Numbered from the stretch's first letter, positions 8,243 to 62,745 are shown. The stretch: 64,000 bases of DNA from an uncultured Acidobacteriota bacterium (GCA_963776915.1 CAVZPE010000025.1:6701-70700); one strand, 5' to 3'. A program made the numbers and translations. The notes: generated by a model not told the origin, from the letters alone.

Positions 8243-8348
8243 GAGACCGGGAGATTCCTTCGAAGGTGAAGTCGAACGCTCGCACCTTGGAGCGGCCGAT
8301 CGCCCGAGGTCGCCCTTCTCGATCTTTCGAAGAAACTCCCCGGGTCTC
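8243..8348. repeat. Inverted pair of dispersed motif (locus 1, intergenic)
   Basis: GAGACCGGGAGATTCCTTCGAAGGTGAAG (8243-8271) ... CTTTCGAAGAAACTCCCCGGGTCTC (8324-8348). Confidence 0.75.
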
Positions 8349-8364
8349 CTAGAATTCCGTCCCG

Positions 8365-9885
8365 ATGCCCGACGTCCCCGAGGAGCCGCGGCCGCCGGGC
8401 GGCGCGTACCCGCGCTACGTCCTCGCCGTCCTCGTCCTCGTCTACGTCTTCAACTTCCTCGACCGGCAGATCGTCTCGATCCTCGCCGAGCGCATCAAGG
8501 CCGACCTCGGAGTCTCGGACGCGCAGCTCGGCTTCCTGTACGGGACCGTCTTCGCCGTCTTCTTCGCCGTCTTCGGGATCCCGCTCGGCCGCCTCGCGGA
8601 CGCCTGGGACCGGCGCCGGCTCATCGCGTGGGGCGCGGCGTTCTGGAGCCTCATGACGGCGCTCTCGGGCCTCTCGAGGACCTTCGGCCAGCTCGCGCTC
8701 GCGCGGATGGGCGTCGGCGTCGGGGAGGCGAGCGCGGCGCCGGCCGCGTACTCGCTCCTCTCGGACTGGTTCCCGAAGGAGAAGCGCGCGACCGTCCTCG
8801 GCCTCTACTCGAGCGGCATCTACCTCGGCGCGGGCCTCGGCCTCGGCATCGGCGGCCTCGTCGTCGACCGCTGGGACGCCGCGTTCCCGTCCGGCACGGG
8901 TCCGTTCGGCCTGCGCGGCTGGCAGGCCGCGTTCCTCGCCGTCGGCCTGCCGGGACTCGTCCTGGCCGCGTGGGTGCGGAGCCTCAAGGAGCCCGCCCGC
9001 GCCGCGTCGCATCCGCCGCTGACGACGACGCCGGTGAGGACGTTCCTCCGCGAGTCCGCGTCCGTCGTCCCGCCGTTCACGTTCGTCGCGCTCGCCGCGG
9101 CGGGCGCGGGCGCCCCGGGCCTCCTCGTCAACGCGGGCGCGTTCACCGCCCTCGCCGCCCTCGCGTGGCTCCTGACGCGCGCCCTCGGCAACGCCGCGCA
9201 GTGGATCGCGCTCGCCGCGGGCCTGTACGCCGTCTTCTCGTGGGCGCAGGCGCTCTCCCTTCGGAGCCGGGAGGACTTCGACCTCGTGTTCCGCAACCGC
9301 GCGCTCGTCCTCGCGAACCTCGGGTTCGGCCTCGTCGCCTTCGGGACGTACGGGACGAGCTTCTGGATCGCGCCGTACTTCGTGCGCGTCCACCACCTGG
9401 ACCTCGCGAGGACGGGCCTCCTCCTCGGCGGGATCTCGGCCGCCGGCGGCTGGCTCGGCGCGACGTGCGGAGGCCTCCTCGCGGACGCGTGGGGGAAGCG
9501 GCGCGCGGACGGCCGCCTCCTCGTGGGCGCCGCGTCGGCGCTCGTCCCGATTCCGATCGCGCTCGGGATGCTCGCGGCGCCCTCGCTCGGCCTCGCGGCG
9601 GCTCTCGCTCTCCCGATCACGGTCCTGACCGCCCTCTGGGTCGCGCCCGCGACGACGACGGCCCAGGAGCTCGTCCCGCCCCGGCTGCGCGGCACCGCGA
9701 GCGCCGTCCTCCTGCTGCACACGACGTTCCTCGGCCTCGCGCTCGGCCCGTACACGGTCGGCCGCCTGAGCGTTCACACGGGGAGCCTGAAGGCGGCCCT
9801 CGCGCTCGCGCTGCCGGTCAACCTCGCCGCGGGCCTCCTGCTCGTCCTCGCCGCGCGGGCCCTGCCCCGGCCGGCGCCATCGTAA
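8365..9885 (+). CDS. MFS transporter (spinster-like)
   Basis: NFLDRQIVSIL, GRLADAWDRRRL, RMGVGVGEA; many TM segments. Confidence 0.9.
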   Translation: MPDVPEEPRPPGGAYPRYVLAVLVLVYVFNFLDRQIVSILAERIKADLGVSDAQLGFLYGTVFAVFFAVFGIPLGRLADAWDRRRLIAWGAAFWSLMTALSGLSRTFGQLALARMGVGVGEASAAPAAYSLLSDWFPKEKRATVLGLYSSGIYLGAGLGLGIGGLVVDRWDAAFPSGTGPFGLRGWQAAFLAVGLPGLVLAAWVRSLKEPARAASHPPLTTTPVRTFLRESASVVPPFTFVALAAAGAGAPGLLVNAGAFTALAALAWLLTRALGNAAQWIALAAGLYAVFSWAQALSLRSREDFDLVFRNRALVLANLGFGLVAFGTYGTSFWIAPYFVRVHHLDLARTGLLLGGISAAGGWLGATCGGLLADAWGKRRADGRLLVGAASALVPIPIALGMLAAPSLGLAAALALPITVLTALWVAPATTTAQELVPPRLRGTASAVLLLHTTFLGLALGPYTVGRLSVHTGSLKAALALALPVNLAAGLLLVLAARALPRPAPS

Positions 9886-9896
9886 GATGCCGCCCC

Positions 9897-10478
9897 ATGA
9901 GACGAATCCCGACGATCCTGACCCTCGCGCTCGCCCTCGCCACCGCCACCCTGAAGGGAGAGAACCCCGTGAAGAACCCGACGGTCGTCATGAAGACCTC
10001 GATGGGCTCGATCACGCTCGAGCTGTACCCCGACAAGGCCCCCGAGACCGTCAAGAACTTCCTCGCCTACGTGAACGCCAAGCACTACGACGGCACGGTG
10101 TTCCACCGCGTCATCGACGGCTTCATGATCCAGGGCGGCGGCTTCACCGCCGACAAGCAGCAGAAGCCGGTGAAGGCGCCCATCAAGAACGAGGCCGCGA
10201 ACGGGCTCAAGAACACGGTCGGCGCCATCGCGATGGCCCGGACGGGCGAGCCGAACAGCGCGACGGCGCAGTTCTTCATCGACGTGAAGGACAACGGGTT
10301 CCTCGACTACCGCGACTCCTCGAAGGAGGGCATCGGCTACTGCGTCTTCGGCAAGGTGACCGCCGGCATGGACGTCGTGAACAAGATCAAGGCGACGCCC
10401 ACGTCGAACCAGGGCGGCGCGTTCGTGAACGCGCCCGTCACCCCGGTGGTCATCGAGTCCGTCCGCGTCGCGCCGTAA
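9897..10478 (+). CDS. ppiA: Periplasmic cyclophilin-type peptidyl-prolyl isomerase
   Basis: FHRVIDGFMIQGGG, AMART, SATAQFFI, YCVFGKV; signal peptide. Confidence 0.92.
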   Translation: MRRIPTILTLALALATATLKGENPVKNPTVVMKTSMGSITLELYPDKAPETVKNFLAYVNAKHYDGTVFHRVIDGFMIQGGGFTADKQQKPVKAPIKNEAANGLKNTVGAIAMARTGEPNSATAQFFIDVKDNGFLDYRDSSKEGIGYCVFGKVTAGMDVVNKIKATPTSNQGGAFVNAPVTPVVIESVRVAP

Positions 10479-10493
10479 TCCGCCGGCCGGACC

Positions 10494-11678
10494 GTGTCGA
10501 GCCTTCCGCCTCCTTACGGATACGCGCCTCCGCCGCCTCCGCGGCGGAGGGGCGGCCCGATCCTCCTCCCCATCCTCGTGGGGCTCCTGGCGGGATGGCT
10601 CGTCTTCACGCTCCTGCAGCGGGGTCCCGGCGGCGTCGCGCCCGCGCCCGGCCGGCTGAAGGGCGCGACCGCCGAGCCCCGGCCCGTCACGGCGCGCGGA
10701 GACCTCGCGGCCGACGAGAAGGCGACGATCGAGCTCTTCGAGCGCTGCAGCCCGTCCGTCGTCTACATCACGAGCCTCGCGCGACGGCCCGTGAACTTCT
10801 TCGAGATGACGGAGGTCCCCCAGGGTACGGGCTCGGGCTTCGTCTGGGACCGGCAGGGCCACGTCGTCACGAACTTCCACGTGATCGAGAACTCCGACTC
10901 GCTCGTCGTGACGCTCGCGGACCAGTCCAACTGGAAGGCGACGGTCGTCGGCGTCGAGCCCGACAAGGACCTCGCGGTCCTCAGGATCGGGGCGCCGGAG
11001 GCGAAGCTCCCGCCGATCCTCGTCGGGGCGAGCCGCGACCTGAAGGTCGGGCAGAAGGTCTTCGCGATCGGAAACCCGTTCGGCCTCGACGAGACGCTCA
11101 CGACGGGCATCGTGAGCGCGCTCGGGCGGACGATCGAGTCCGTCACGGGCCGCAAGATCCAGGACGTCGTGCAGACGGACGCGGCGATCAACCCGGGCAA
11201 CTCGGGCGGCCCTCTTCTCGACAGCGCGGGCCGGCTCATCGGCGTGAACACGCAGATCGCGAGCCCGTCGGGCGCGAGCGCCGGGATCGGGTTCGCGGTC
11301 CCCGTCGACACCGTGAACGAGGTCGTCCCGCAGCTCATCGCGCACGGCCGCGTGATCCGCCCGCGCCTCGGGATCAGGCCGATGCAGGAGGGCCTCCTCC
11401 GCAGGCTCGGGGTCTCGGGCGTCCTGATCGGGACCGTGGACAAGGAGAGCGGCGCCGCCAGGGCCGGGCTCCGCGAGACGCGGAGGGGCGAGGACGGCTC
11501 GCTCGTCCTCGGCGACATCATCGTCGGCGTCGCGGGCAAGAAGGTCGCGAGCTACGACGACCTCGTCTCGGTCCTCGAGAAGCAGAAGATCGGCGACACC
11601 GTGCCCGTCCGCATCCTGAGGGGCGACGGCGAGACGACCGTCGACGTCACGCTCTCGGAGCCGGCGCCGCGCCGCTGA
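10494..11678 (+). CDS. HtrA/DegP-family serine protease with one PDZ domain
   Basis: TNFHV, DLAVL and GNSGGP catalytic triad motifs; N-terminal TM; PDZ. Confidence 0.93.
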   Translation: MSSLPPPYGYAPPPPPRRRGGPILLPILVGLLAGWLVFTLLQRGPGGVAPAPGRLKGATAEPRPVTARGDLAADEKATIELFERCSPSVVYITSLARRPVNFFEMTEVPQGTGSGFVWDRQGHVVTNFHVIENSDSLVVTLADQSNWKATVVGVEPDKDLAVLRIGAPEAKLPPILVGASRDLKVGQKVFAIGNPFGLDETLTTGIVSALGRTIESVTGRKIQDVVQTDAAINPGNSGGPLLDSAGRLIGVNTQIASPSGASAGIGFAVPVDTVNEVVPQLIAHGRVIRPRLGIRPMQEGLLRRLGVSGVLIGTVDKESGAARAGLRETRRGEDGSLVLGDIIVGVAGKKVASYDDLVSVLEKQKIGDTVPVRILRGDGETTVDVTLSEPAPRR

Positions 11679-12450
11679 TCCGGAACGCCTCGCGCACCTC
11701 GCCGAGCGGCGCGCCTCCCGCCCCGAAGCTCCGCTCGACGAAACGGACGTCTCCCTCCGTCACGACGACGGACGTCGACGCCCGGGTCCCGTAGTCCGGC
11801 AGGACGACGAACGCCGCCGAGAGCGCCCGCTCCCGCTCGAGCGGCAGACCCGTGTCCGGAAGCGCGACGTCGGAGGCGAGAGATCGATCTCCGAGAAGGT
11901 CGAGCAGGCGGCGCTTCGAGCTCCTGCGGCGTCCGTCGCGCCTCGCGACGGCGCGTTCCGAGCCGGCCCCGCGCGGCGATGACCTTCGGCCACGGCGTCT
12001 CGAGGAGGTGGTTCGAGAGGCCGTAGACGCCGGGAGGAAGAGAGACCGCGCTCGCCCTCGACGTTGGAGAAGGAGATCAGCTCGGTTCCATCCGAGAGAA
12101 GGAGATTGAATCCTTCGAATGAATCCGCGACGGTCCGAATGCGCGAGAGGAATTCTCGCGCGGTCTCTTCACCTCTAAGAAAATCTCTTGCGAGCGTGCC
12201 CCGAGACGGGGCGCCGCCCTTGCGCGCCGCCGTCAGCGTCGCGGAAGTTCGTCAGCGCCGCGAAGCGGCCGGTGCGCGTCACGCCGAGCCACGTGCCGCC
12301 CGCCTCGAGGTCGCGGCCGCCGAAGACCCACGGCGCGTCCGTCCACCACGCGGCGGGCGCCGCCGGCCGGGCGAGGAACTCGTCGCGGTTCGCCGCGACC
12401 GCGAGCCGGATCCCCGGCGCCGCCTTCCAGGCGAGGACGATCAGGCACAT
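11647..12450 (-). CDS. NRDE/TANGO2 family protein (frameshifted)
   Basis: MCLIV...ANRDEF...GGTWLG...LTNFR, then SRG...DFL...GFNLL...GLSNH...YGTRAST in shifted frames. Confidence 0.88.
12101..12187. repeat. Inverted pair of dispersed motif (locus 2, inside NRDE CDS)
   Basis: Weak left arm GGAGATTGAATCCTTCGAATGAAT; strong right arm CTCTTCACCTCTAAGAAAATCTC (12165-12187). Confidence 0.65.
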
Positions 12451-12468
12451 GGCGCCCTCAGCACGCCC

Positions 12469-12852
12469 TCAGCGCGCCCTCGCGGACGCCGCGAAGACCG
12501 TGACCTCGCGCCGCGCCGCGAGCGTGGCCTCGCCCTCCCGCGCCCGGCCCGTCGAGACGACGCGCAGGCGGCCGTCCGGCAGCTCGTCCGTCGCGACCGC
12601 GATCTCGCCGCCCTCGACGCGGAGCGTCGCGGACGGCAGGCCGCCGCGCGCGAGGAGCGTCCCGCGCGCCCAGTCCGTGCCCGAGCGCGCGAGCTCGGAC
12701 GCGTACTGCGCGTTCGCGCGGCGGCGCGAGGACGCGAGGTCCGTGAGGAGGACCGTCGCGAGGACTCCGAGGACGAGCCCGAAGATCGTGAGGATGCCGA
12801 GGACGAGGAGGAGCGAGCTCCCCCGCCGGCCCGAGGCCGCGCCGCGCCTCAT
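12469..12852 (-). CDS. PilX/GspK-like minor pseudopilin
   Basis: RRG|SSLLLVLGIL prepilin-like site lacking E5, followed by A..LA.SG..WA. Confidence 0.65.
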   Translation of the reverse strand: MRRGAASGRRGSSLLLVLGILTIFGLVLGVLATVLLTDLASSRRRANAQYASELARSGTDWARGTLLARGGLPSATLRVEGGEIAVATDELPDGRLRVVSTGRAREGEATLAARREVTVFAASARAR

Positions 12853-13340
12853 CGCGCGGGCTCCGTCGGGCGCCCGCACGCGAGCGCGACACGCTCCGGG
12901 CCCGACCCGTCGTCCCAGACGAGGAGGAGCCGCCCGGCCGCGAGCTCGTCGGCGTCGAGCGCGAGCGTCCCGGGCAGGTCCCACGTCGTCGTCGCGCGGA
13001 CGACGTCGCCGCCGGGCTTCTTCCGCGTGGTCGTCCGCTCCGCCGTCCCGTCCCCGAACGTCCACGCGACGTCCGGATCCTCGTCGCGCTCGGGCGGCAG
13101 CTGCAGCCGGAAGGCCGCCGCCGGGAACGGCGGCGAGACGAGCGCCCCGGAGGAGCGTCCCGCGTCGGCCTCGAGGCGGTCGACGAGGAGGGGCCACGTG
13201 TCGATCCCGAGGCTCCGCGCGTTCAGGCCCGCCTGCTGGCGGAGGAGACCGAGCGCGACCGGCAGCAGCGCGAAGAGGAGGACGACGCCGATCATGACGA
13301 CGACGCACATCTCGACGAGGGAGACGCCGCGGCGCGTCAC
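12849..13340 (-). CDS. Prepilin-type (GspJ/PilW-like) minor pseudopilin
   Basis: RRG|VSLVE plus hydrophobic helix; GTGA overlap with upstream gene. Confidence 0.7.
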   Translation of the reverse strand: MTRRGVSLVEMCVVVMIGVVLLFALLPVALGLLRQQAGLNARSLGIDTWPLLVDRLEADAGRSSGALVSPPFPAAAFRLQLPPERDEDPDVAWTFGDGTAERTTTRKKPGGDVVRATTTWDLPGTLALDADELAAGRLLLVWDDGSGPERVALACGRPTEPAR

Positions 13341-13735
13341 GGCGGCGCGACCCCCCGGAAGACGAACCCTTCCTGGACGAGGCGCTTGCGTGCGGCGGCG
13401 CCGTACCCGATCTCGAGCGTGACGCGGTAGAGGCCGTCCACGTCGGTGGACCGCACGCTGAGGACGGGGTCGCGCGCGTCGAGCCCGTCCACGAAGACGC
13501 CGGGGCCCGCGAAGGGGCGCCTGTCCTTCGGGAAGAGGTCGTGCCGGAACGCCGTCCTCAGGTACGTCCACTCGCTCGCGAGGGCGCGCGCGGCGCGGTC
13601 GCGGTCGAGCCGCTCGGCCTCGAGGGCGCGGCGGCGCGCGAGGAAGCTCGCGCCGAGCGTGAGGACGATGCCGAGAATCGCGAGCGACACGAGCGCCTCG
13701 AGGAGGAAGACTCCCCGTGTCCGTCGCCCTTTCAC
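13337..13735 (-). CDS. Prepilin-type (GspI/PilV-like) minor pseudopilin
   Basis: RRTRG|VFLLEALVSLAILG type IV prepilin cleavage motif. Confidence 0.72.
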   Translation of the reverse strand: MKGRRTRGVFLLEALVSLAILGIVLTLGASFLARRRALEAERLDRDRAARALASEWTYLRTAFRHDLFPKDRRPFAGPGVFVDGLDARDPVLSVRSTDVDGLYRVTLEIGYGAAARKRLVQEGFVFRGVAPP

Positions 13736-13821
13736 GGTTCGATTATTCCCCGGCCGCGAAGCGCCCGGGCGGTTTGACCTCTTCCGCCGCCCGTTTGCGT
13801 TTACCGGGACAGGAGGACCCC

Positions 13822-16383: not shown

Positions 16384-16413
16384 GGGGCGATTCTCCTCCC
16401 GTATGCTCCCGCC

Positions 16414-17436: not shown

Positions 17437-17438
17437 CG

Positions 17439-18059: not shown

Positions 18060-18097
18060 CCGATCAGCCGGGATTCCCCGTCACGCGTCTCGAGGCG

Positions 18098-19132: not shown

Positions 19133-19164
19133 GCGCGGAGATTACGACGACCCCCGCCGCGAAT

Positions 19165-23058: not shown

Positions 23059-24017
23059 GTGCCCGAGCTCCCGGACGTCGTCGTCTACGCCGAGCACCTC
23101 GAGCGCCTGCTGAAGGGCGCCGTCCTGCGGAAGGTGCGCCTCGCGAGCCCGTTCGTCCTGAGGTCGGTCGCGCCGCCCCTCGCCTCGATCGAGGGCCGGG
23201 CGCTGCGAGGGGTGTCCCGGCTCGGGAAACGCCTCGTATTCTTCTTTGAAGGGGAAGAGGGGGATTCGAACCAGGAGCGCGACCGCGACGGTGACTTTTC
23301 CTCGTCCTGCACCTCATGATCGCGGGGCGCCTTCGATGGAGGGCCGGCGTCGCCCCTCTTCCCATTCCAAAGAAAATCGGTCTTCTCTCTCTTTCTCTTC
23401 GACCACGGGACTCTCCTTCTCACCGAGGCGAGCCCGAAGAAGCGCGCGTGGGTGCGCGTCGTCTCCGGCCGCGACGCGCTCGGAGCCCTCGACCCCGGCG
23501 GCCTCGAGCCGCTCGAGGCGTCGCGCGAGGCGTTCGTCGCGCGCCTGCGCAGCGAGAACCACACGCTGAAGCGCGCGCTCACGGACCCGACGCTCTTCTC
23601 GGGGATCGGGAACGCGTACTCGGACGAGATCCTGCACGCCGCGAGGCTCTCTCCCGTCGCGCTCACGTCGCGCCTGACGGACGCCGAGGTCGGCGCGCCT
23701 CTTCGACGCGACGCGAACGACCCTCCTCGAGTGGACCGACCGCCTGCGGCGCGACGCCGGAGAGACGTTTCCGGAAAAGGTCACGGCGTTCCGCGCGGAC
23801 ATGGCCGTGCACGGGAAGTTCGGCAAGCCGTGTCCCGCGGTGCGGGACCGCCGTCCAGCGCATCGTCTACGCCGCGAACGAGACGAACTACTGCCCGGCG
23901 TGCCAGACGGGCGGCAGGCTCCTCGCGGATCGTTCCCTCTCGCGCCTCCTCCACGGCGACTGGCCGAAGAGCCTCGAAGAGATGGAAGAAAGAATGAAGA
24001 ACGAGAAGATCTCCTAG
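23059..24017 (+). CDS. Fpg/Nei-family DNA glycosylase (several frameshifts)
   Basis: PELPDV N-terminus, [23 protein letters not shown] (H2TH), zinc finger CP..C / YCPACQ. Confidence 0.9.
23236..23378. repeat. Inverted pair of dispersed motif (locus 3, inside Fpg CDS)
   Basis: GTATTCTTCTTTGAAGGGGAAGAGGGG (from 23236) ... CCCCTCTTCCCATTCCAAAGAAAATC (23353-23378). Confidence 0.75.
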
Positions 24018-24093
24018 AAGGTGAAGAGGAAGAGGGGGAGGAGAGCCGCCTGCCCTCTTCCCCCTCTAGGAAAATCTTCTTCTCTCTCATTCT
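23991..24093. repeat. Inverted pair of dispersed motif (locus 4, between convergent genes; possible terminator)
   Basis: AGAATGAAGAACGAGAAGATCTCCTAGAAGGTGAAGAGG ... CCCTCTTCCCCCTCTAGGAAAATCTTCTTCTCTCTCATTCT. Confidence 0.85.
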
Positions 24094-27083: not shown

Positions 27084-28505
27084 ATGCATCGAGCGCTGGC
27101 CGCCTTCCTCGTCGCGCCCCTCGTCCTCTCCGCCCCGTCCGCGAGGGCGGCTTCCCCGTCCGCCGAGGCGAAGGCGATCGTCGAGGAGCTCGTCGCCTGC
27201 GGGACGCGCCATTCGCTCTCGTCGTGGACGGACCCCAAGCGCGGGATCGGCTGCGGGCGCGACGCCGTGGTCCGCCGCTTCGACGCGGTCGAGAAGGAAA
27301 CCGGCGGCAAGCTCCGCGTCGTCGTCGACTCGTACGAGACGACCGGCCCGCGGACCCGGAACGCGCCCGTCCACATGGAGAACGTCTACGCGATCCTCGG
27401 GGGAACCGATCCCGTGCTCTCGAAGACCGCCTTCGTGGTCTCGGGCCACTACGACTCGATGCCGTCCGACATCATGGATCCGGCGTCCGATGCGCCCGGC
27501 GCCGACGACGACGCCTCGGGCACCGCGGCCTCCATCCTCGCCTCGCGCGCCCTCGGGGCGACGCCCGCCCGGGCGACTCTGATCTTCGCGGCCGTGGCGG
27601 GCGAGGAGCAGGGCCTCCTCGGGTCGAAGCGGATGCTCGCGTGGCTCGGGACCCACGGCTACGCCGTCGGCGGGATGATCACGTGCGACATCGTCGGGGC
27701 GACGAACGGGAGCCCTGACCGCCGTGTGCGCGTGTTCTCCGAGGGCGGGCCCGACGGCATCGACTCGCCCGGGCGGCAGATGGCGCGCCTCGTCGAGGAC
27801 GTGAACGGAAAGGACAGGGTCCGCCTGATCTTCCGCCTCGACCGCTTCGGCCGCGGCGGCGACCACCGGCCGTTCGCCGAGGCGGGGCTTCCCGCCGTGC
27901 GCTTCACCGAACCGCTCGAGGACTACCGGCACGAGCACCAGACGCCCCGCACGGAGAACGGCGTCGAGTACGGCGACCTGCCTAAGTTCATGGACTTCGA
28001 CTTCGTCGCCGAGACCGCGGACGTCGTCGCGAAGACGCTCGCGGAGATGGCGAACGCGCCCGCCCCTCCCAGGAGGGTGACGCTTGGCGGAGCCGTCACG
28101 CCGAATTCGGAGATTTTCTTAGAAGGTAATAGGGATGCGGAGCGCGCGGGGTACGAAATTCTCTGGAGAGAAACCACCGAGGCCCGCTGGTCCGTCGTGA
28201 AGACCGTCGAGGCGAACGCGCCCGCGGCGCAGGCGTCTGCCGGCGCGTCGCCGGCCGCCTCGGGCGCGCCGGCCGCACCCCAGCCTCCCTCTTCTCCACT
28301 CGAAGAAAATCTTTCTCTGGTTCTTTCTTCGATTTCGACCGACAACCACTACTTCGCCGCGCGGAGCGTCGGGAAGAACGGGAGACGGAGCATCGCCGTT
28401 CCGGCCGTCGCCGCCGTGCGCCATCCGCCCGGATTCGTCTCCGCCCCGGCGCCGTGGGTGACGCCGCCGCCCGTGACGCGGCCGGCCGGACCGCCGGTGA
28501 AGTAG
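27084..28505 (+). CDS. Secreted M28 family peptidase
   Basis: SGHYDS, GADDDASG, GEEQGLLGS, GGDH, HEH. Confidence 0.9.
   Translation: MHRALAAFLVAPLVLSAPSARAASPSAEAKAIVEELVACGTRHSLSSWTDPKRGIGCGRDAVVRRFDAVEKETGGKLRVVVDSYETTGPRTRNAPVHMENVYAILGGTDPVLSKTAFVVSGHYDSMPSDIMDPASDAPGADDDASGTAASILASRALGATPARATLIFAAVAGEEQGLLGSKRMLAWLGTHGYAVGGMITCDIVGATNGSPDRRVRVFSEGGPDGIDSPGRQMARLVEDVNGKDRVRLIFRLDRFGRGGDHRPFAEAGLPAVRFTEPLEDYRHEHQTPRTENGVEYGDLPKFMDFDFVAETADVVAKTLAEMANAPAPPRRVTLGGAVTPNSEIFLEGNRDAERAGYEILWRETTEARWSVVKTVEANAPAAQASAGASPAASGAPAAPQPPSSPLEENLSLVLSSISTDNHYFAARSVGKNGRRSIAVPAVAAVRHPPGFVSAPAPWVTPPPVTRPAGPPVK
28110..28314. repeat. Inverted pair of dispersed motif (locus 5, inside M28 CDS)
   Basis: GAGATTTTCTTAGAAGGTAATAGGG (28110-28134) ... 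CCCTCTTCTCCACTCGAAGAAAATCTTT (28287-28314). Confidence 0.8.
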
Positions 28506-28512: not shown

Positions 28513-30300
<1,788 letters not shown>

Positions 30301-34839: not shown

Positions 34840-35706
34840 TCAGCCCGCCCAGGGCAGCGTGAACCGGGCGAGGGGCGCGCAGTCGCTCGCTCCCTTCTCG
34901 AGCCCGACGACCTCGACGTCGAGCCCGGAAGGGCCGGGGCTGCACAGCAGGAAATGGAAGTGACGCAGTTCCGGGCCCTCGAAGAGATCGTCGGCATGGC
35001 GGCGGGCTGCGCCCCGGGCGAGCTTCACGCGCGGTCCTCCGCCGCCGCCCGCGACGAGGAACGTCTTCCCGCCACGGACGAAGTGCTCGTAGCTGTGGAC
35101 GTGTCCGGCGACCATCGCGAGCGTCTTTCGCGCCGCGGCGAAGGACGGCACGAACGCCCGCCGCACGTGGAGCTCGTCTCCCGTGACGGTGCTGTTCGTG
35201 AACGGCGGATGGTGGACGAAGACGACGACGCCGCGGACGGCGGGGTCCGCGTCGAATCGCGCAAGCGTCTCGCCGAGCCACGCCTCCTGCTCCCTCCAGG
35301 CCTCTCTTCCGAGCTCACGCTCGTTGGAATCGAGGAACAGCAGCCCGAGAGACCCATAGGTGTCGGCGTGCCAGCGCCGTCCGGCGAGCGTCGGGAACCT
35401 TTCGAAGAAATTCCGCAAGGCGATCCGGGAGCTGAGCCAGTACTCGTGGTTGCCCAGGAGCGGGAAGATCGGGATCCCGGCTTCGCGCAGCGGTGCCGTC
35501 AGCGCGTCGAAGAACTCCCAGTCCCGGCGCGACGACCCCTGGAAGACGAGATCGCCGAGGGCCACGACGAAGTCCGGGCTCCGCGCCGCGATCTCCGCGA
35601 CGAGGCGACGGCGCTCCTCGGGATTCGACTCCCTCCAGAACTCCGCGCGGGAGGTGCGCTGGAGATCGCCGACGACCGCGAATCGGCCGCTCCGGACCTC
35701 GATCAC
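34840..35706 (-). CDS. Metallophosphoesterase
   Basis: GDLQ, LGDLV, GNHE, HHPP, GHVHSYE. Confidence 0.88.
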   Translation of the reverse strand: MIEVRSGRFAVVGDLQRTSRAEFWRESNPEERRRLVAEIAARSPDFVVALGDLVFQGSSRRDWEFFDALTAPLREAGIPIFPLLGNHEYWLSSRIALRNFFERFPTLAGRRWHADTYGSLGLLFLDSNERELGREAWREQEAWLGETLARFDADPAVRGVVVFVHHPPFTNSTVTGDELHVRRAFVPSFAAARKTLAMVAGHVHSYEHFVRGGKTFLVAGGGGGPRVKLARGAARRHADDLFEGPELRHFHFLLCSPGPSGLDVEVVGLEKGASDCAPLARFTLPWAG

Positions 35707-40832: not shown

Positions 40833-41552
40833 CTAGCGCCGGGGCGAGAAGCTGAGATCCGCTCTCTCCTCCGGGTGGACGGCGCAGCGCAGGGAGACGC
40901 CGCCGGAGATTTCTTCGAATGAAAGAAGGCGGGCGGCGCCGGAGCCGAGGACGGGGACGTTTCGCAGGATGCTGCCGTCTCCAGAGAGCACCTCGACCGC
41001 GTGCAAGTGCCCATCCGTCGAACGAAGCGCGACGTCGCCTCCCGTCGCAGGGGAAATTACCTTCGAAGAAAATCTTCCGTCTCCGACCGTCACGTCCAGC
41101 GCCGCCGCCAGCCGCGCGGCCTCGGCCGACCCGGAACCGGCCGCACCTCGACGCGCGCCGCCGACTCCCCCGCCCTCTTCACCATTCGAAGAAATTCTCT
41201 TCTTCCCCCGCAACACGTCCTCGAGCAGCCCGCCGACGCGCGCCGCCGGCGGCGGCGTCCCGAACGACCACAACGTCACGAGGACGAACGCCGAGATCCC
41301 GAACTTCACGATGGAAAGGAGGAGGGACTCGACGAGGACGGGCACGAGGCGCGGCGTCCCGCGCCGGAAGAACGCGGCGAAGACGCCGGGGGGGATCACG
41401 GCGTAGCTCCACAGGATCGCGGCGTTCGGCTCCCAGCGATGCCGCCAGACCGGACCGGCGGCGAAGGCGAAGACGAGGAGCGCGGCGGCGAGGACGGCGG
41501 CGCGCTCGGGCACCGTCAGGGCGCGGACGCGCGGGTGCAGGACGAGCGACAC
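40833..41552 (-). CDS. Membrane protein with C-terminal cupredoxin-like domain
   Basis: Three TM segments; DGHLHAV...LRCAVHPEE. Confidence 0.6.
   Translation of the reverse strand: MSLVLHPRVRALTVPERAAVLAAALLVFAFAAGPVWRHRWEPNAAILWSYAVIPPGVFAAFFRRGTPRLVPVLVESLLLSIVKFGISAFVLVTLWSFGTPPPAARVGGLLEDVLRGKKRISSNGEEGGGVGGARRGAAGSGSAEAARLAAALDVTVGDGRFSSKVISPATGGDVALRSTDGHLHAVEVLSGDGSILRNVPVLGSGAARLLSFEEISGGVSLRCAVHPEERADLSFSPRR
40905..41202. repeat. Dispersed motif, three arms (locus 8, inside CDS)
   Basis: + GGAGATTTCTTCGAATGAAAGAAGG (40905); - TTACCTTCGAAGAAAATCTTCC (41057); - CCCTCTTCACCATTCGAAGAAATTCTCTTC (41173). Confidence 0.8.
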
Positions 41553-42135: not shown

Positions 42136-44835
<2,700 letters not shown>

Positions 44836-49337: not shown

Positions 49338-49368
49338 GGACGTGCGGGGCGCTGGGTATCATCGGGCC

Positions 49369-50479: not shown

Positions 50480-50527
50480 CCGGGGCGTCCTTTCCCCGCC
50501 GCGGCCCGGGCGTGGCAATCTCCGGGC

Positions 50528-52347: not shown

Positions 52348-52360
52348 GATCGGGATCGCG

Positions 52361-54636: not shown

Positions 54637-54664
54637 CTCCCGCGCCTCCCGTCTAGACTCGGGC

Positions 54665-57223
54665 ATGGCGATCCGCCTCCGCCTCACGACCACCCCCGGC
54701 TGGGAGGTCGTGCGCGCGGCACCGCGTCGGGCGGCTGCACGGGCCGCGGCCGCGGACCCGTTCCTCGCCCGGGCCCTCGCGACCCGGCGCCTCGTCCTCG
54801 CCGGAACCGCGCGCGTGCGCCCGCGCCGCGGGGCACCCGCGGAGCCCGGCCGCGCGGCGGCGACCGTCGAGGGGGCGGGGACGGACGGCTACGTCTTCGT
54901 CGCGCGCCACGCCTCGGGCGCGCTCACGTTCCACCGGACGCTGTCCGTCGCCGGAGGGGCCCACGTCTTCGAGGTCCCCCTGCCCGCGCCCGCGCGCCGC
55001 GGCGTGGCCGGTGCGGTGGTGCTCTTCCTCCTCCGGGTCGCGGGAGCGGCCGCCCGGGCGGCGCTCCCCGTCCTCGCGCGCGCGTGGGAGAAGCGCCGTT
55101 TCGCCGCGGCCCGCGCGCCGCTCGGCCTCGTGAGGCTCGCGCGCCGGGGTCCGGCTCTCGTCGCGACGCGCGTCCACGGCCCCCTGCCGCCGGCGCCCGG
55201 CAAGAGTCTCCTCTTCATCCACGGGACCTTCTCGCACGCGGCGGCGGCCTTCCTCGACCTCGCGCGGACGCCCGCCGCCTTCGACGCGCTCGCCGCGGCG
55301 TACGGCGGCCGCGTCTACGCCTTCAACCACCTCACCGTCGGCCTCGCCCCCGGCGACAACGTGAAGGAACTTCGCCCGCTGCTGTCGGGCGCGCGCGTCG
55401 ACGTCGTCACGCACTCGCGCGGCGGCCTCGTCCTGCGCGCGCTCGCGGCCGAGCGCGGCGCGCCCGCGATCGGCCGCGCCTTCCTCGCCGCCTCGCCGAG
55501 CGAGGGCACGCCCCTCGCGGCGCCCGCCCGGTGGGACGAGCTCGCCGCCTGGGTCGCGAACCTCGCCGAGGTCCTCCCCTCCGGCGCGCTCGCCTTCGGA
55601 CTCGATTTCGCCGCCGAGGCGCTCGTCTGGATCGCGCGCCGGGCCGGCGGCGCGCTCCCGGGCCTCGCCGCGATGGATCCGGCGGGCGACTTTCTCGCGA
55701 AGCTGAACGCGCGGCCGGCGGGAGGGGCGGCGTTCGCCGCGGCCGTGGCGGACTTCACGCCGACAGGCGGCCTCGCCAGACGCCTCCTCGACGCGGGCGC
55801 CGACGCGATCTTCCGAGATGCCGAACGACCTCGTCGTCCCGACCGAGGGCGGTCTCTCGCTCGGCAGACGCCGCATCGACGCGCGGACACACGGTGCGCT
55901 TCGAGGGGGACGTTCATCACCTCAATCTCTTTGCTCAGGAGAGAACGCAGGAAGGATTGAAGATTTTCTTAGAGGGTGAAGAAGGGATGCCCGCCGCCGC
56001 AGCGCGCGACACACGGCGCGGCAGCCCGCCCAAGCCCCATTCACCTTCTAAGAAATCTTCTCCCCCGGCCGCGCGCAGCGCGGCTCCTTCTTCTCTCCGC
56101 GCGCAGCGCGCAGAAATCTTCGTCTTCGGCCTCCTCCCGCTTCGACCTCCTCCTCGTCGACGGCGAGCCCGCGCGCCTCGTCGCGTCGTGGGCGGGGGCG
56201 CGCGTCGTCGAGCCCTTCGAGACGAGGGGCGGCGCGGCGGGCGAGAGGATGCGCCGGATCATCGCGCTCCACGAGCGCGTTCTCCGCGCGCTCGACGGGC
56301 GCGGTGCCGGAGACCTGCCGAAGGCCTCCGAGCTCGCGGCCTACGGCGCGGTCCTCTTCGAGACGCTCTTCCCGGGAGAGGTGCGCCGGCTCTGGGACGC
56401 GGCGCGCGGCTCCTCGGCGCGCCCCCTCGAGCTCGTCTTCACGTCCTCCCTCGACTGGATCGCCGACAAGCCTTGGGAGCTCGCGTGGGACCCCGCGCGG
56501 AAGCGATTCCTCTCGGACGACGCCGTCCTCGTGCGCAACGTCTTCGGCGCGATCCCGCCGGAGGCCCCCGCCACGAGGCGCGGGCCGCTCCGCATCCTCG
56601 TCGCGGTCGCGCAGCCGCGCGACGCGACGCCCGTCTCCGCCCGGCAGGAGACCGCCGCGCTCCGCGCGGCGTTCGCGCCGCTCGTCAGGGCCGGCCACGC
56701 CGTCCTCGACGTCCTGCCGGCCGCGACGCCCGGAGGCCTGCACCGAAAGCTCGCCGCCGAGCGCTTCGACGTCCTCCACTTCGTCGGGCACGGGGCCTGG
56801 GACGAGAAGGAGAAGACCGGCGCGCTCCTCCTCGTGGACGGCCGCGGCCGCTCCACGTGGGTCGACGCGGACCGCCTGCGGCGCCTCCTCTGCGGCCGAG
56901 GTCTCCGGCTCGTCGTCCTGAACGCCTGCGAGACGGGGCGCGGCTCGCGCAACGACTTCCTGCGCGGCGTCGCGCCCGCGCTCCTCGCCGGCGGCATCCC
57001 CGCGGTCGTCGCGAACCAGTACAAGGTCCTCGACACGTCCGCCACCGCGTTCGCCCGGCACCTCATGTGGGCGCTCGCGCGCGGCCACGCGCTCGGGCAG
57101 GCCGCGCGGGAGGCGCGCGTCGCCGTCGCGGTGGCGCGCTCCGCCGAGCCCATGGACTGGGCCGTGCCCGTCCTCTACGCGCGCGACACGTCGCTCGTCC
57201 TCTGCCGGCCGGCCCGGCGCTAG
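54665..57223 (+). CDS. Alpha/beta-hydrolase (lipase-like) domain followed by CHAT domain; one frameshifted gene or two genes
   Basis: IHGTFS, THSRGG, NDLVVPT, HH; CHAT motifs PWEL, LHFVGHG, LNACE. Confidence 0.75.
55959..56060. repeat. Inverted pair of dispersed motif (locus 9)
   Basis: GAAGATTTTCTTAGAGGGTGAAGAAGGG (55959-55986) ... TTCACCTTCTAAGAAATCTTC (56040-56060). Confidence 0.85.
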
Positions 57224-57251
57224 GGGCCGAAGGATGGGGACACTACCCGGT

Positions 57252-59352
57252 ATGCGACGCAGGCGATCCCGGGCTCTTCGCGCGCCCGCGGCCCGCCTCG
57301 CGCCGGCGATCGCATTCGCGGGCTTCCTCTTCTTCGCGTTCTCCGTCTTCTTCGCTTTCTTCGCATCCTCCGCAATCTCCGCGGCGCCCGTCGCCGTCGC
57401 CGTCGACCCGAACGCGGATCGGCACCCCGTGAGCCCCCTGATCTACGGGATGAACTTCGGGACCGCCGCGCAGATGTCGCGCCTGAAGGTGCCCGTCCGC
57501 CGCTGGGGCGGGAACTCGACGACGCGCTACAACTGGGAGAACGACACGCACAACAGCGCGAACGACTGGTTCTTCTTCAATTACGCCGGGAACGCGAACC
57601 CCGCGAACCTCCCGAACGGCTCGGACGCCGACGTCTTCGTGGACGAGATCCGCGCCGCGGGCGGCGAGGCCCTCGTGACGGTCCCGCTCATCGGCTGGAC
57701 GCCCATCGACCGGACGCGGCGCTGGGGCTTCTCGGTCGCGAAGTACGGCGCGCAGAAGGTAGACCGAGTGCTCGGCGACCGGGAACGCGTCCTGGTGCAA
57801 CCCCGACGCCGGAAACGGCGTGAAGCCGGACGGCACGTCCGTGACGGGCAACGACCCGGCCGACACGTCGAAGACGATCGACGCGACGTTCGTCACGCGC
57901 TGGATGGCCCACCTCGCGGCCCGGACCGGAACCGCGGCGGCCGGCGGCGTCCGCCTCTGGGCGCTCGACAACGAGCCGATGCTCTGGAACTCGACGCACC
58001 GCGACGTCCACCCGGCGGGGACGACGTACGACGAGCTCTGGGGGAAGACCGCGACGATCGGCGCCGCGATCAAGGCGCAGGACCCCGGCGCGCAGACCCT
58101 GGGCCCGGCGGTGTGGGGGTGGTGCGCGTACTTCTATTCCGGCGCGGACGGCTGCGGACCCGGAGCCGACCGCGCCGCGCACGGCGGCGAGGACTTCCTC
58201 CCGTGGTACCTCGACCAGGCGAAGGCGTGGGAGACGGCGCACGGCAAGAGGCTCCTCGACTACTCTCGACGTCCACTACTACCCGCAGGCCGCCGGCGTC
58301 GCGCTCTCGACCGACGAGTCGTCCGCGACGTCCGCGCTCAGGCTCCGGTCGCTCAAGAGCCTCTACGACCCGACGTACGTCGACGAGTCGTGGATCGGGA
58401 CGGACGTCGGCCAGGCCGTGTACCTGATCCCGCGGATGAAGGCGTGGATCGCGGCCCACTACCCCGGCACGAAGCTCTCGATCAGCGAGTACAACTGGGG
58501 CTCCGACGACGGCGATCAGCGGCGCGCTCGCGCAGGCCGAGGCGCTCGCGATCTTCGGGCGCGAGGGCGTCGACCTCGCGACGCGCTGGGTCGCGCCGGC
58601 CGAGAACACGCGTACGGAGGACGCGTTCCTCCTCTACCGCAACTACGACGGCGCCGGGGCGCAGGTGGCGGGCGACTCCGTGCGCGCGACGAGCGGCGAC
58701 GTCGACGCGGTCGGAGCCTACGCGCAGCGCGGCGGCGCGGGTTCGAACACGCTCTATCTCCTCCTCTTCAACAAGGACACCGCGACGCGGACGGTCGCGG
58801 CGACCGTGGCGGGCGGGCTCTCGGGGTCGGCCTCGCTCTGGCGCTTCTCGGGCGCGTCGCGGCTCGCGGCCGCGGGCAGCGCGGCGCCGTCGGGCGGGAC
58901 GCTCACGCTGGATCTCCCGGCCCGGTCGGCGACGCTCGCGGTCGTGGCGCTCCCCGGCGCGCCGCCACCCCCGCCGGCGGCGGCGTCCTTCCACGCCGCC
59001 GTCGCCCTGCCGCCTCCTCGACACGCGCGCGGCCGCCGGCCCGGCGCTCGCCGCGAACGCACGACGCGACTTCGTCCTGACGGGAGCCTGCGGGATCCCC
59101 GCGACCGCGAAGGCCCTGTCCGCGAACGTGACGGTCACCGCCCCGACGTCCGCGGGCAGCCTCGTCGCGTTCCCGGCCGACCTCGCGCAGGCGCCCGGCA
59201 CGAACACGCTGAGCTTCGGCGCGGGTCAGACCCGCGCGAACAACGCGATGCTCCTCCTCGCCGGCGACGGCTCCGGCCGCGTCGCGTTCCTCGCGCTGAT
59301 GCCGTCGGGCACCGTCCACCTCGTCGTGGACGTGAACGGCTGGTGGGAGTAA
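57252..59352 (+). CDS. Secreted glycoside hydrolase family 44 with C-terminal PCR..DTR domain (frameshifted)
   Basis: SPLIYG, RWGGN..TRYNW, LDNEP.LW..THRDVHP, DVHYYP, ISEYNWG; ends DVNGWWE*. Confidence 0.88.
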
Positions 59353-59400
59353 GCCTCAGGAGCGGTCACGGCGAGAGTCGCCAGGCGGTACTCTCCGATC

Positions 59401-60364
59401 GTGCGCGGCGCTTCCCTCTTACTTTTTCGCAGGAATCTTCGCCTTCGGCCTGTCCGCGCAGACCCCCGCGCCGCGCGAGATCGCGGTCACGATCGACGAC
59501 CTGCCGCTGAACGGGCCCGACCTGCCGCTGCGCCGCCCTGCAGGCGATGACGGAGAAGCTGCTCGCCGGCCTGCGCCGCGAGCAGATCCCGGCCGTCGCG
59601 TTCGTGAACGAGTCGAAGCTCTACCGCACGGGCGAGGTGGACGCCCGGATCGCCCTCCTGCGCGCGTGGCGGGACGCGGGCGTCGAGCTCGGCAACCACA
59701 CGTTCTCGCACCCCTCGCTCCAGACGACGGCTCTGGCCGCATTCGAGGAGGACGTCGTCCGGGGCGAGACCGTGACGAGGATGCTCCTGAAGGGAGAAGG
59801 CCGCCTCCTGCGGTGGTTCCGCCATCCGTTTCTTCAGACCGGCCCGACCAGCGAGACGAAGAAGGCGTTCGAGGAGTTCCTCGCGGCGCGCGGCTACCGC
59901 GTCGCGCCGGTCACCGTCGACACGAACGACTGGATGTACAACTCCGTCTACGCCGACGCGCTCGCGCGAGGCGACGCGGGGGGCGCGGCACGCGTGAGGG
60001 ACGCCTACGTCGCCTCGTACACGAGGATCCTCGACTTCTTCGAGGACCTGACGCTCCGCGTCTTCGACCGGCCGATCCGCCACGTCCTCCTCGTGCACGC
60101 GAACCAACTCAACGCCGACGCCGTGCACGACTGGGCGGCGGTCCTCAGGGCGAGGGGCTACGCGTTCGTCGTCGCTCGCGCGCGCGCTCGAGGACCCGGC
60201 GTACGCGATCCCCGACCCGTACGTCTCGCAGGAACGGGATCTCGTGGCTCCACCGCTGGCTGTACGCGAAGACCGGCGCGACGCGCCTGAAGGAAGAGCC
60301 GGACCCGCCGCCCTTCGTCATGGGCGCGTACGCGGCGATCCAGAAGAGGCGCGCCGCCCGATGA
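59401..60364 (+). CDS. Secreted polysaccharide deacetylase (CE4), frameshifted
   Basis: TIDDLP, GNHTFSH, FRHPFL, LLVHAN. Confidence 0.85.
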
Positions 60365-60383
60365 GCGGCGCGCCGTCCAGGCC

Positions 60384-62745
60384 TCAGTCCTCGGCGTCTC
60401 TCGGCGGCGTCCCGCTTGTCGCGCGCGCGCCGCAGGGCCTGCTTGAACCGGGGGTCCTTGCGGATCGAGTCGAGGTCCGAGTCGTCGCGCATCCGGTCCG
60501 CGGCGTCGAAGCCGGCGTCGATCGCCTGGTTGAGCCGGTCGAACGCCCGGTCCGTGTTGCCGCTGCGTGCCTCGGAGCACGCGAGGTTGTAGAGCGTCGT
60601 CGGCTTGCGATAGCCGCGCTCGAGGGCCTTGCCGAACGAGTCGACGGCTTCCTCCGGGCGGTCTCCCATGAGCTGCGCGTAGCCGAGGTTGAACCAGGCG
60701 CGGCCGAGCTCCGGGTGCGCCTTCGCGACCTTCTCGTAGCGCGCGGTCTCGCCCCGCCACGCCGAGCGGCTCGTGTGCGGCATGAAGTTCCCGAGGAAGC
60801 CCTCGACTCCCGCGTCGAGCGCGAGGTCGTCCGCGAGGTCGAGCAGGTCGCTGAAGCGCTTGTCGCCGTGCAGGTCCTCGAGGTCGTCGTCCCGCTCCAT
60901 GTGCCGGGGGTCGTCGTAACCCTCCTCGAGCGCCTTCCGGAGCGTGTCGAGGGCCTCCGACTTCTTCCCGGCGCGGGCGAGCGCGCACGCCGCGTTGTAA
61001 TAGGACGCGGAAACCCGGTTGCCGGCGGCCGCGGACGCGCGGAACGCCTTCTCCGAGAGGTCGTAACGCCCCGCGTTCAGGAGGTCCATGCCGGTGCGAT
61101 AGAGCGCGGGGCCGTCCTTGGCGCCCGCCGCGACGAGGCGGTCGTAGCGCGCGGCCGCATGGTCGCCTTCGGATTTCTTCGCGTCGCGGCGCGCCGCGCG
61201 GGCATCCTTCCTGAGGTCTTTCCAGCGCGGGTCGGAGCGGAGCGAGTCGAGGTCGTCGTCGTCGAGATACCCCTCCACGTCGAACCCGTACGAGGCGGCC
61301 TTCCTCAGCCACTCGAACGCGTGGTCCTTGTCGCCCTTCAGCGCGTAGCCGCAGGCGATGTTGTAGGCCGACGCGTCCTCCCGGTAGCCGAGGTCGATCG
61401 CCTTGCGGAACGCGGCGATGGCCTCGTCGTAGTGCCCGTTCTCGTGGTTCCTCATGCCCCGGCTGTACCAGTCGGAGCCCGACTCGCGCCGCGGGGCCGC
61501 GAGGATCGTCCGCCGGCTCGCCATCTCGACCTTCCGGGTCTCGACGGTCGTCCGCGAGAAGCCGGTCCCGAAACCGCCGAGGAAGGTCGGACCGGCCCCT
61601 TCGGACGACGCCGCGTCGGCGCGCGGGGCGACGCCGAGGTGCACCGTCGCGACGAGCGCCGCGCCCGCGACGAGCGCCGAGGCCGCGAGCCGCGCCTGCC
61701 ACGCGCCCATCGGCCGCCGCTCGAGCGCCGGGTCGAGGATCGCGCGGACACGCTCCTCGACCTGCGACGGGCGCGCCATCGCGAGGGCCCACCGCTCCGG
61801 CTCGCGCGCCAGGCCGCGGACGATCGCGACGAGGTGCGCCGCGTAGTCGGACGGGCGTGTTCCCGCCCCGAGCACGAGGTCGTCGGCGGCACGCTCGCCT
61901 TCGCGGCGCAGGGCGGCGACGGCGGCCCGCGCGAGCGGGTGGAACCAGTAGAGGGCGGCGACGGTCTCGGCCGCGAGGCGCGCGAGCGTGTCGCGCCGGC
62001 GCACGTGCGCGAGCTCGTGCAGGAGGACGACGCGCCGGCGGTCCGCGTTCCAGGCCGCGGCCGCGCGCGGAAGGACGAGGACCGGCCGGAGCACGCCGGG
62101 CCGTCAGCGGGACCTCCGTCTCGTCGCTCACGAGCAGCGCGACGACGCCGCGGGAGACCGAGCGTCCGCGCGGCTTCCGCGGCCTCCGCCGACCAGGACG
62201 CGTCGGCGAGCAGGCCGCGCGCGCGCGGACGAGGCCGCTCACCGCGAGAAGCCCGCCCACGAGCCGGGCGAGCATGGCCGCGGCTCCGAACGCCCAGAGG
62301 AGCGCCACAGCAGCGAAGATCTCGCCCCCGGCGAAGCGAACACCCGCGGGGCCGGGGCCGGCGCTTCGCGCCGCGTTCTTCGAAGGTTGAGCGGGGCCGG
62401 ACTGGACGTGTCGCGCTGCCGGCGCTCCTCGCGCGGCCGTTTCCCCTCTTCACCTTCTAAGAAAATCTTTCGGTTCTTCCGCGAGGAGACTCGGGCGATC
62501 GGCGTCTCGACCGCGCGCGGCGCGGCCGCGGCGGCCGGGAGGACGCGCCACTCCCAGCGCGGGAGGACCGGCGTGAGCGCCGGCACGAGCGCGGCCCCGA
62601 GGAGCGCGAGGAGCGCCGCGAGATGGCGCGCGGAGGCGGAGCGGCGCGGGAGGGCGCCGAAGACGACGAAACCGGCGGCGAGGATCAGGGTGGCCTTCGC
62701 GGCCCAGACGAGGCCGACGAGGCCGGCGCGCGCGAGGATCTCCAT
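60384..62745 (-). CDS. M56 (BlaR1-like) metallopeptidase with three C-terminal TPR modules (frameshifted)
   Basis: N-terminal TMs, LLHELAH, WFHPL, E.AADD; three copies of YN.AC...D.DL. 3' end approximate. Confidence 0.85.
62375..62470. repeat. Inverted pair of dispersed motif (locus 11, inside M56 CDS)
   Basis: GTTCTTCGAAGGTTGAG (62375) ... CCCCTCTTCACCTTCTAAGAAAATCTTT (62443-62470), near-perfect consensus. Confidence 0.85.

Follow-up and report, generated by a model that had tools for sequence, protein, structure and literature searches.

An uncultured Acidobacteriota bacterium of the class Thermoanaerobaculia carries, at about 600 loci in its genome, a pair of convergent, AT-rich arms that bracket a GC-rich spacer of free sequence and mostly lie outside called genes, shortly behind stop codons. 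The pair was noticed in a stretch of 64,000 nt of the metagenome-assembled genome (MAG) of this organism (GCA_963776915.1, CAVZPE010000025.1:6701-70700), referred to below as the window. At a probability of about 0.42, we read it as a lineage-specific, host-maintained boundary element of gene ends, similar in kind to repetitive extragenic palindromes (REPs) and bacterial interspersed mosaic elements (BIMEs) or to the TRIT elements ("tuberculosis Rho-independent terminator") of Mycobacterium, in which each arm would be read by a putative lineage-specific factor. We favor this reading because of the position of the pair relative to stop codons, the long-term conservation of the arms, the freedom of the interiors, the constraint on copies in coding DNA and the absence of covariation between the two arms.

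The arm motif and its abundance

The genome comprises 4.49 Mb in 34 contigs with a GC content of 71% (69-76% in the window), at a completeness of 81.6% and a reported contamination of 4.5%. Several contigs are near-duplicates of one another with 85-99% identity (C24/C25, C15/C21, C16/C22/C1 and C33/C4), which points to a strain mixture or redundancy and to slightly inflated copy counts; these contigs served as close comparisons. The arm logo takes 431 genomic copies of the core TTC[TC]T[AC]GAAGG as its anchor and describes an asymmetric sequence of about 30 nt, in which a purine-rich (GA) run is followed by ATTTCTT[A/C]GAAGG and then by TGAAGAGGG(G). The consensus, (GA)n-ATTTCTTMGAAGGTGAAGAGGG, is AT-rich within DNA of 71% GC. 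An independent anchor on the inner part of the arm recovered the same core, and the TTC-N3-GAA dyad seen in the preliminary description of the window is present in the logo. The forward (F) arm holds a Shine-Dalgarno-like AGGTGA. The reverse (R) arm (TCACCTTCTAAGAAA) resembles the 3' tail of the 16S rRNA together with the start of the following spacer (TCACCTCCTTTCTAAAGGA; 16S at C3:3461-5016), which may be a coincidence.

Arms were detected with a fixed 30-column position weight matrix (PWM) derived from the 431 genomic cores, at a standard threshold of at least 14 bits. At this threshold the genome holds 1200 arms compared to 125 in an order-3 Markov simulation, and the ratio sharpens to 1029 versus 50 at 18 bits and 743 versus 0 at 24 bits. 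Genes were called with a home-made codon-bias caller that covers 70% of the genome, so that all statistics on gene context are approximate. Outside called genes, 892 arms are present versus 20 under a Markov model trained on those regions, and inside called genes 227 arms versus 59-72 in synonymous-codon shuffles, an enrichment of about 3-6-fold. The preliminary description had proposed to give up the motif if it showed no enrichment over such a codon-preserving background; the excess therefore indicates that the signal is real. Within the window, the consensus given in that description (up to three mismatches) matches three times versus none in 100 shuffles. Sixteen of the 20 arms it listed reach at least 14 bits with the genomic PWM. 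The remaining four stay below (29626+, 12.7 bits; 23353-, 11.0; 59414-, 9.3; 12101+, 5.9), two of which had already been flagged as weak. Likewise, the window has 17 patches of low GC content (at most 45% over 30 nt), and 14 of them coincide with listed arms. Rfam yields no match at gathering score over the whole window and none at an E-value of at most 1 on positions 55850-56250, and the window contains no tRNA. Among the titles and abstracts of the literature matches listed, no description of this motif was found.

Architecture of the pair

Neighboring arms within 400 bp are convergent (F then R) in 425 cases, divergent in 33 and tandem in 117; at distances of 400-4000 bp, only 13 F..R neighbors occur. 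Strong convergent pairs account for 844 of the 1200 arms. The remaining 356 have a weak partner on the convergent side in 165 cases and on the divergent side in 22, and altogether about 84% of the arms are in convergent pairs. Counted as clusters (n = 676), the orders are FR (306), single (258), FFR or FRR (79), FF (12), FRF (8) and RF (4), hence a rule of the form F+R+. The convergent order reported for the window is thus borne out across the genome as part of a genome-wide, lineage-specific, oriented paired signal. The added statement that the order holds whichever strand the gene is on carries no information, since F..R reads F..R on both strands. Single arms (145 contexts) show a weak trend, with 30 versus 10 in favor of an arm that follows a gene end in the purine-first sense.

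Spacing was taken from center to center for 375 pairs, with the kinase class described below set aside. Distances cluster sharply at 70-89 bp (140 pairs) and, past a trough, form a broad second peak at 110-160 bp. Helical phasing at 10.5 bp is absent (Rayleigh R of 0.043 compared to a noise level of 0.053), and the spacing therefore lends no support to the earlier suggestion of a DNA-looping site. A GA-rich tract lies to the left of F and a CT-rich tract to the right of R; both are microsatellite-like and variable between near-identical contigs. In place of GA or CT, tandem heptamers or hexamers (GGATTTC or CCGAAT) flank some of the arms, for instance at C4:565460-565530 and C18:305960-306000.

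The interiors are usually about 45-55 nt long and richer in GC than arm-free intergenic DNA (77% versus 70%). A proportion of 109 out of 412 resemble any other interior: the two large clusters are kinase paralogs, and the other similarities are duplicated contigs with matching flanks or GC-rich matches of 15-30 nt. The spacers are therefore unrelated to each other, as had been noted in the window, and with no conserved interior and no copy of a whole unit found at an unrelated site, the element is also not a classical miniature inverted-repeat transposable element (MITE). The period-3 spread of GC amounts to 0.225 in interiors, 0.164 in shuffled sequences, 0.261 in arm-free intergenic DNA and 0.504 in coding fragments, so the interiors are not gene fragments. 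A reading of the element as a coding domain was rejected on this same spread and on pair distances, which lack a 3-nt periodicity outside the kinase class. A reading as captured, spacer-like DNA was rejected as well: 76 of the 412 interiors match elsewhere in the genome, and they are not coding-derived. The elsewhere-matches inspected among those listed are duplicated contigs, kinase paralogs or short matches of 20-37 nt.

Conservation of sequence rather than of pairing

Folded as RNA, the whole element reaches a z-score of -3.5 (-4.0 in a worked example), and the cores pair in 150 out of 160 cases. Arms of one element fold on each other because of their shared consensus alone. In 375 pairs, the identity of an F arm with the reverse complement of its own R arm is 0.4453 compared to 0.4467 with permuted partners (z = -0.4), and no column exceeds an absolute z of 3. 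Duplex energies show no difference between cognate and non-cognate flanks (-19.6 versus -19.0; p = 0.11), covariation is absent at the variable central base, both within the genome and between orthologs, and the scores of partner arms are uncorrelated (r = 0.05). Neither is there a G-U bias with the direction of transcription, as wobble counts are 525 versus 567 in ++ contexts and 523 versus 461 in -- contexts. Arms proximal and distal to the stop codon score alike (28.6 versus 28.6). An attC-like or structure-only hairpin was rejected because cognate complementarity is missing, and on these comparisons the arms appear to be recognized by their sequence and not by structure.

Position relative to genes

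The statement that most copies are intragenic does not hold: 18% of the arms (217/1200) lie more than 30 nt inside called genes and 82% outside, although the calls cover 70% of the genome. At 71% GC, spurious open reading frames (ORFs) run on to the TAG or TGA of the motif. Among the 188 pairs with clearly coding sequence on both flanks, 131 separate different frames or strands, 27 separate the same frame with a stop in between, and an open frame runs across the other 30. Chance alone is expected to open such a bridge fairly often, since stops are missing from one frame of F and from two of R. Where the upstream gene is clear (263 flanks), its stop codon falls between -110 and +19 of the arm center in 154 cases, with a peak 30-59 nt upstream of the center. 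The stop is the TAG of the core in 16 cases and the TGA of GGTGA in six. The next start codon follows 20-250 nt past the far arm. Pairs occupy 12% of the co-directional gaps (77/617), 13% of the convergent gaps (11/84) and 6% of the divergent gaps (13/208), and a window-based classifier gives a stronger divergent depletion (eight among 188 classified).

Canonical terminators consisting of a hairpin and a T-run are not enriched in the window (20 versus 15.3 expected); the genome therefore needs other end signals. Of the features of a canonical intrinsic terminator, only the position behind the stop codon fits the element. Rho, RNase III and ComEC are all encoded in the genome, which does not discriminate between readings.

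Copies inside genes

The most informative intragenic copies are found in a Ser/Thr kinase-PD40 family with dozens of copies, many of them in tandem on contig C4. Each carries a pair at a spacing of 93, and together they make up 25 of the 27 pairs with this spacing in the genome. The F arm encodes LPEEF[F/L]EGEE, and the R arm YSFEEI followed by a variable Ser-rich CT tract. In the closest homologs from three motif-free genera, the corresponding residues are LPEAFAADAER and YGLEE in GC-rich codons, and there is no Ser insert; the own genus reads ..EEFFEGEER.. and ..YSFEEI.., and so does the motif-bearing sister genus. Both kinase arms therefore arose through point substitutions in codons that were already there. 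The codons used are very rare in the genome as a whole (GAA 8.4%, GGT 3.0%, TTT 2.7% and TTA 0.0% of their codon families), a usage that shows a constraint at the nucleotide level. A second pair follows the kinase domain in another frame, where CTT AGA AGG TGC is read as LRRC.

The tandem expansion of these kinase-PD40/WD40 genes extends over C4 from about 317 to 630 kb with at least 19 motif-bearing copies, and genomes of the family have 15-49 matches each. Every copy has a poly-Ser insert between beta4 and beta5 of the kinase, and this insert is variable. A motif-free relative is located in the window at 42136-44835.

A different kind of intragenic copy occurs in a biotin-carboxylase-type gene, where an in-frame element adds about 33 residues between VPG and PVVVKA that are missing from paralogs without the insert. 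This copy is frameshifted upstream and may be decaying. Splits between frames were observed in several genes, for instance the N-terminal domain of biotin carboxylase versus the rest (L055 994-3412, corresponding to C4:560993-563411) and the N-termini of kinase paralogs on C4, which suggests assembly indels or pseudogenes. Such splits are probably the reason that gene calls cover just 70% of the genome.

Elements of the window and their orthologs

The window contains eight elements and three single arms, listed here with their PWM scores (F arms on the plus strand, R arms on the minus strand).

8248..8342, element 1: F 8248-8277 (24.7 bits) and R 8313-8342 (19.0 bits) with a unique interior of about 40 nt, between a VWA/Big_7 gene that stops at 8238 and an MFS gene with its ATG at 8365
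12103..12189, element 2: degenerate F 12103-12132 (5.9 bits) and R 12160-12189 (21.8 bits)
23234..23381, element 3: F 23234-23263 (25.0 bits) and weak R 23352-23381 (11.0 bits), with a CT-rich tract behind it
24003..24080, element 4: F 24003-24032 (30.0 bits) and R 24051-24080 (32.7 bits) around a short interior (center distance 53), located 14 nt past the point where a minus-strand MFS_3 gene stops (24094)
28108..28315, element 5: F 28108-28137 (36.0 bits) and R 28286-28315 (24.6 bits), center distance 183, from the end of an M28 peptidase domain match (~28113) and upstream of an SSF transporter gene (28513), with an ORF passing through
29625..29654, plus strand: weak single arm (12.7 bits) within the SSF transporter ORF
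35388..35417, minus strand: single R-type arm (15.1 bits) without a partner of at least 14 bits
40903..41201, element 6, order F-R-R: F 40903-40932 (23.6 bits), R 41049-41078 (30.9 bits) and R 41172-41201 (30.9 bits), between the start of a minus-strand GMC oxidoreductase gene (40823) and plus-strand genes
55958..56062, element 7: F 55958-55987 (38.5 bits), beginning on the TGA stop of a DUF7379 gene, and R 56033-56062 (40.6 bits), after which come a conserved GC mini-hairpin (56067-56085) and a CHAT-domain gene
59413..59442, minus strand: weak single arm (9.3 bits)
62368..62471, element 8: F 62368-62397 (17.4 bits) and R 62442-62471 (44.8 bits), with a minus-strand gene on either side

The order of element 6 belongs to the second commonest class (FFR/FRR, 79 of the 676 clusters). 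Element 7 could be followed at its locus through 11 species with flanks that are 69-92% identical. Its F arm is almost invariant, the interior varies from about 30 to 160 nt and is unalignable, and the R arm is kept in eight species and degenerate in three. At the orthologous site of element 1, loci L007 and L008 of two other species keep the arms, with interiors that differ in length and sequence and are unalignable, and L009 and L006 of another two species carry no element. The homologous copy of element 5 on contig C24 has flanks of 98.5% identity and an interior of 89.6% identity. Homologous contigs within the MAG differ by one indel of a whole element and by several indels of half an element (77-93 bp, an arm and the interior). 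No direct repeat or target duplication is visible at the four indel boundaries inspected.

The taxonomic range was determined by a scan with the 19-nt consensus at up to two mismatches. Within the own genus, the motif is present in all 29 genomes (G000 included) with 39-218 copies each. One sister genus has 1-21 copies in each of its eight genomes, and a third genus of the family a single copy in one out of 17 genomes, which is at noise level. None was found in seven further genera of the family (0 copies) or in the 12 genomes of two other families of the order.

Some further features surround these elements. The MFS gene next to element 1 has a TAGAAT box 9 nt ahead of its ATG (window 8344-8367), with no Shine-Dalgarno sequence; the box is kept in orthologs and looks like the promoter of a leaderless or near-leaderless mRNA. 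As for the element itself, a promoter reading was rejected: it has no match to sigma-70 spacing, there are no promoter-like sites in 60 kb, elements are rarer between divergent genes and the TAGAAT -10 box is present with or without an element. Behind the R arm of element 7, two GC mini-hairpins of the type GCGCG-(A/C)AG-CGCGC with pyrimidine-rich tails occur at 56067-56085 and at about 56100-56125, the second of which is conserved in the 11 aligned species. AT-rich patches without the motif are found at 5306-5355 and 63143-63196; the latter holds an inverted repeat (CTGCTAGAAACTTAGCAG) followed by an A-rich run.

A putative gene-end signal and its alternatives

The element at issue is built of an arm of about 30 bp, (GA-rich)-ATTTCTT[A/C]GAAGG-TGAAGAGGG, and a convergent reverse complement with a CT-rich tract, which bracket a free, very GC-rich spacer; the pair typically lies 30-60 nt past a stop codon. 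In the reading that we favor, each arm would be read singly and by its sequence by a putative factor restricted to the genus and its sister genus, which may be a protein with either DNA or the transcript as its target. The pair would mark where transcription units end, from whichever direction they come, through termination, 3'-end processing or protection, or insulation; we infer both this factor and the formation or insulation of transcript ends as its output. End-marking of this kind is a role ascribed to REP/BIME, Correia, TRIT and paired DNA uptake sequence (DUS) elements in other lineages. Owing to the F+R+ order, a transcript arriving from either side meets the purine arm first and the pyrimidine arm last. 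By analogy, this order is the logic of bidirectional terminators and of TRIT, Correia and DUS pairs.

Several observations weigh against a gene-end signal. The copy number varies about five-fold within the genus at fixed stringency, a pattern closer to that of a repeat family than to a fixed regulatory code. The indels of whole and half elements, together with the in-frame copy in the biotin-carboxylase gene, suggest insertional dynamics. Elements also occur in divergent gaps and inside genes, the context statistics rest on crude gene calls and a frameshifted MAG, and the sharp spacing mode at 70-89 bp is left unaccounted for. With no T-run after it, the element is not a canonical intrinsic terminator, and its interior is weakly structured (z = -0.93, inner arms included). 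No candidate for the reader factor was identified.

The insertional traits are those expected if the arms are the terminal inverted repeats of a transposase substrate, i.e., a selfish or relic mobile repeat of MITE or REPIN (REP doublet) type that is tolerated after genes without a host function. Its organization closely resembles that of REP dimers and REPINs, with hundreds of inverted doublets, spacing modes near 75-85 and 110-160 bp and a low occurrence between divergent genes, and it is present at some orthologous sites and absent from others. Yet loci with unrelated flanks share no interior beyond the short matches described above, and orthologous arms are kept while interiors drift, which is not expected of dead transposon ends. 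The kinase arms arose by substitution and not by insertion, and the inspected indels left no target duplication. A Y1/RAYT transposase (PF01797) is absent from the own genome (0/1) and present in four out of 29 genomes of the genus, in none of them bracketed by arms. Moreover, the arms show no compensatory changes, are no palindromic units and carry no GTAG or CGTC tag. We consider a mobile repeat unlikely on balance. Somewhat less likely still are arms that a nucleoid-associated or topology protein (bridging, wrapping or gyrase-type) uses as paired DNA sites, to organize the chromosome rather than to end transcripts; a gyrase-type site has been proposed for BIMEs. The independent conservation of each arm for sequence, the full strand symmetry (no wobble bias, equal proximal and distal scores), the fixed orientation with a preferred spacing and the AT-rich islands in 71% GC DNA would all suit such sites. 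They do not predict the tight link to stop codons, however, and the spacing spans 50-250 bp without helical phasing; a candidate protein was not found.

A signal for DNA uptake or self-recognition had been put forward in the preliminary description by analogy with DUS and the uptake signal sequence (USS). Biased uptake would then have spread the motif, and inverted pairs of it would have been co-opted at the ends of genes. Parts of this idea stand: the motif is genus-specific and weaker in the sister genus, and in coding DNA it occurs in several reading frames and arose by point substitution. The passages of PMC13714241 on Neisseria present DUS pairs as non-canonical terminators in a large share of 3' untranslated regions. 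Other parts do not fit, as over 80% of the arms lie outside called genes with strong enrichment there, and the arm of about 30 bp belongs to an obligate pair around an interior of about 45 nt instead of a tight hairpin. The presence of ComEC is compatible with uptake and uninformative, because ComEC is near-universal. An uptake signal thus seems very improbable.

Relation to known elements

The comparison with known systems brings out which traits of the putative gene-end signal are shared. The preliminary description took the unrelated spacers as an argument against REP elements, which is unsafe: the part of PMC3733652 on REP dimers describes spacers of 20-100 bp that differ in sequence and size, and allows for intragenic copies. 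REPINs consist of inverted doublets in 93% of cases, with spacings of 71 and 110 bp, as stated in the relevant section of PMC3116915. As far as these sources describe them, REP/BIME elements and REPINs resemble the present element in their hundreds of extragenic copies, mostly after genes and rarely between divergent ones, in the dominance of inverted doublets, in spacings close to the modes found here, in a spacer less conserved than the arms and in occasional in-frame intragenic copies (PMC3116915, PMC3733652). Defined as inverted, 20-100 bp apart and rarely tandem, REP dimers also agree with the neighbor counts (425/33/117) and with the first spacing mode. However, a REP unit is defined in that part of PMC3733652 as a stem-loop palindrome with a stem of 5-13 bp and a terminal GTAG or CGTC tag. 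The arm described here is an asymmetric, purine-rich 30-mer, AT-rich within a GC-rich genome, with the TTC-N3-GAA dyad alone and neither stem-loop nor tag. Unlike in REPIN-RAYT systems, there is no cognate flanked RAYT and no compensatory change, and the interiors are unalignable and not merely less conserved. Unlike in MITEs, no interior is conserved across copies.

TRIT elements are likewise genus-restricted, conserved in sequence, palindromic or bidirectional and located at stop codons, in a GC-rich genome that is described as poor in canonical terminators. This resemblance, drawn by description and not by sequence, would be a likeness of kind and not homology. The authors of TRIT also inferred an unknown factor in the text of PMC3152330 that deals with it, and later work, in the corresponding passage of PMC13714241, suggested that RNase III shapes the TRIT 3' ends. 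A TRIT is nevertheless one compact hairpin of conserved structure with 147 copies, compared to a split pair with a free interior of at least 45 nt, about 600 loci and no covariation. The Correia elements of Neisseria and the Rickettsia palindromic elements (RPEs) share terminal inverted repeats of about 26 bp and long RNA stems. The same part of PMC13714241 names RNase III as the enzyme that processes Correia repeats, and RPE and REP copies can be in-frame in genes according to that of PMC3733652. Both families have conserved interiors and behave as MITEs, in contrast to the unique interiors here. DUS and USS are lineage-specific over-represented words as well, with inverted pairs after genes and coding copies in tolerated frames; they differ in being words of 10-12 bp (or a 9-bp core) in tight hairpins with many coding copies, as opposed to a long arm, a long interior and a largely extragenic distribution.

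Implications

In a bolder version of the gene-end reading, which we regard as rather doubtful, the genus and its sister genus would own a new sequence-specific factor, and the ~600 pairs would be a coded, bidirectional gene-end signal independent of RNA structure. Selection strong enough to rewrite kinase codons to those with 0-8% usage would then have acted on the signal, and the pair would have been co-opted as a control device inside the kinases.

How GC-rich bacteria without canonical terminators end their transcripts is a standing puzzle, and the links between lineage-specific end elements (TRIT, Correia, DUS pairs and REP) and the formation of 3' ends are only beginning to be drawn. The element would add a case from the Acidobacteria, and an unusual one, in which both arms are conserved for sequence without covariation in pairing. 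The absence of covariation speaks for a dedicated reader protein and not for an RNA hairpin or the relic of a transposase. For annotation, the element is of direct use, as its TAG and TGA end many spurious ORFs and it marks the real gene ends in these MAGs. Finally, the kinase family may serve as a natural experiment, in which the signal was written by point mutation against an extreme codon bias.

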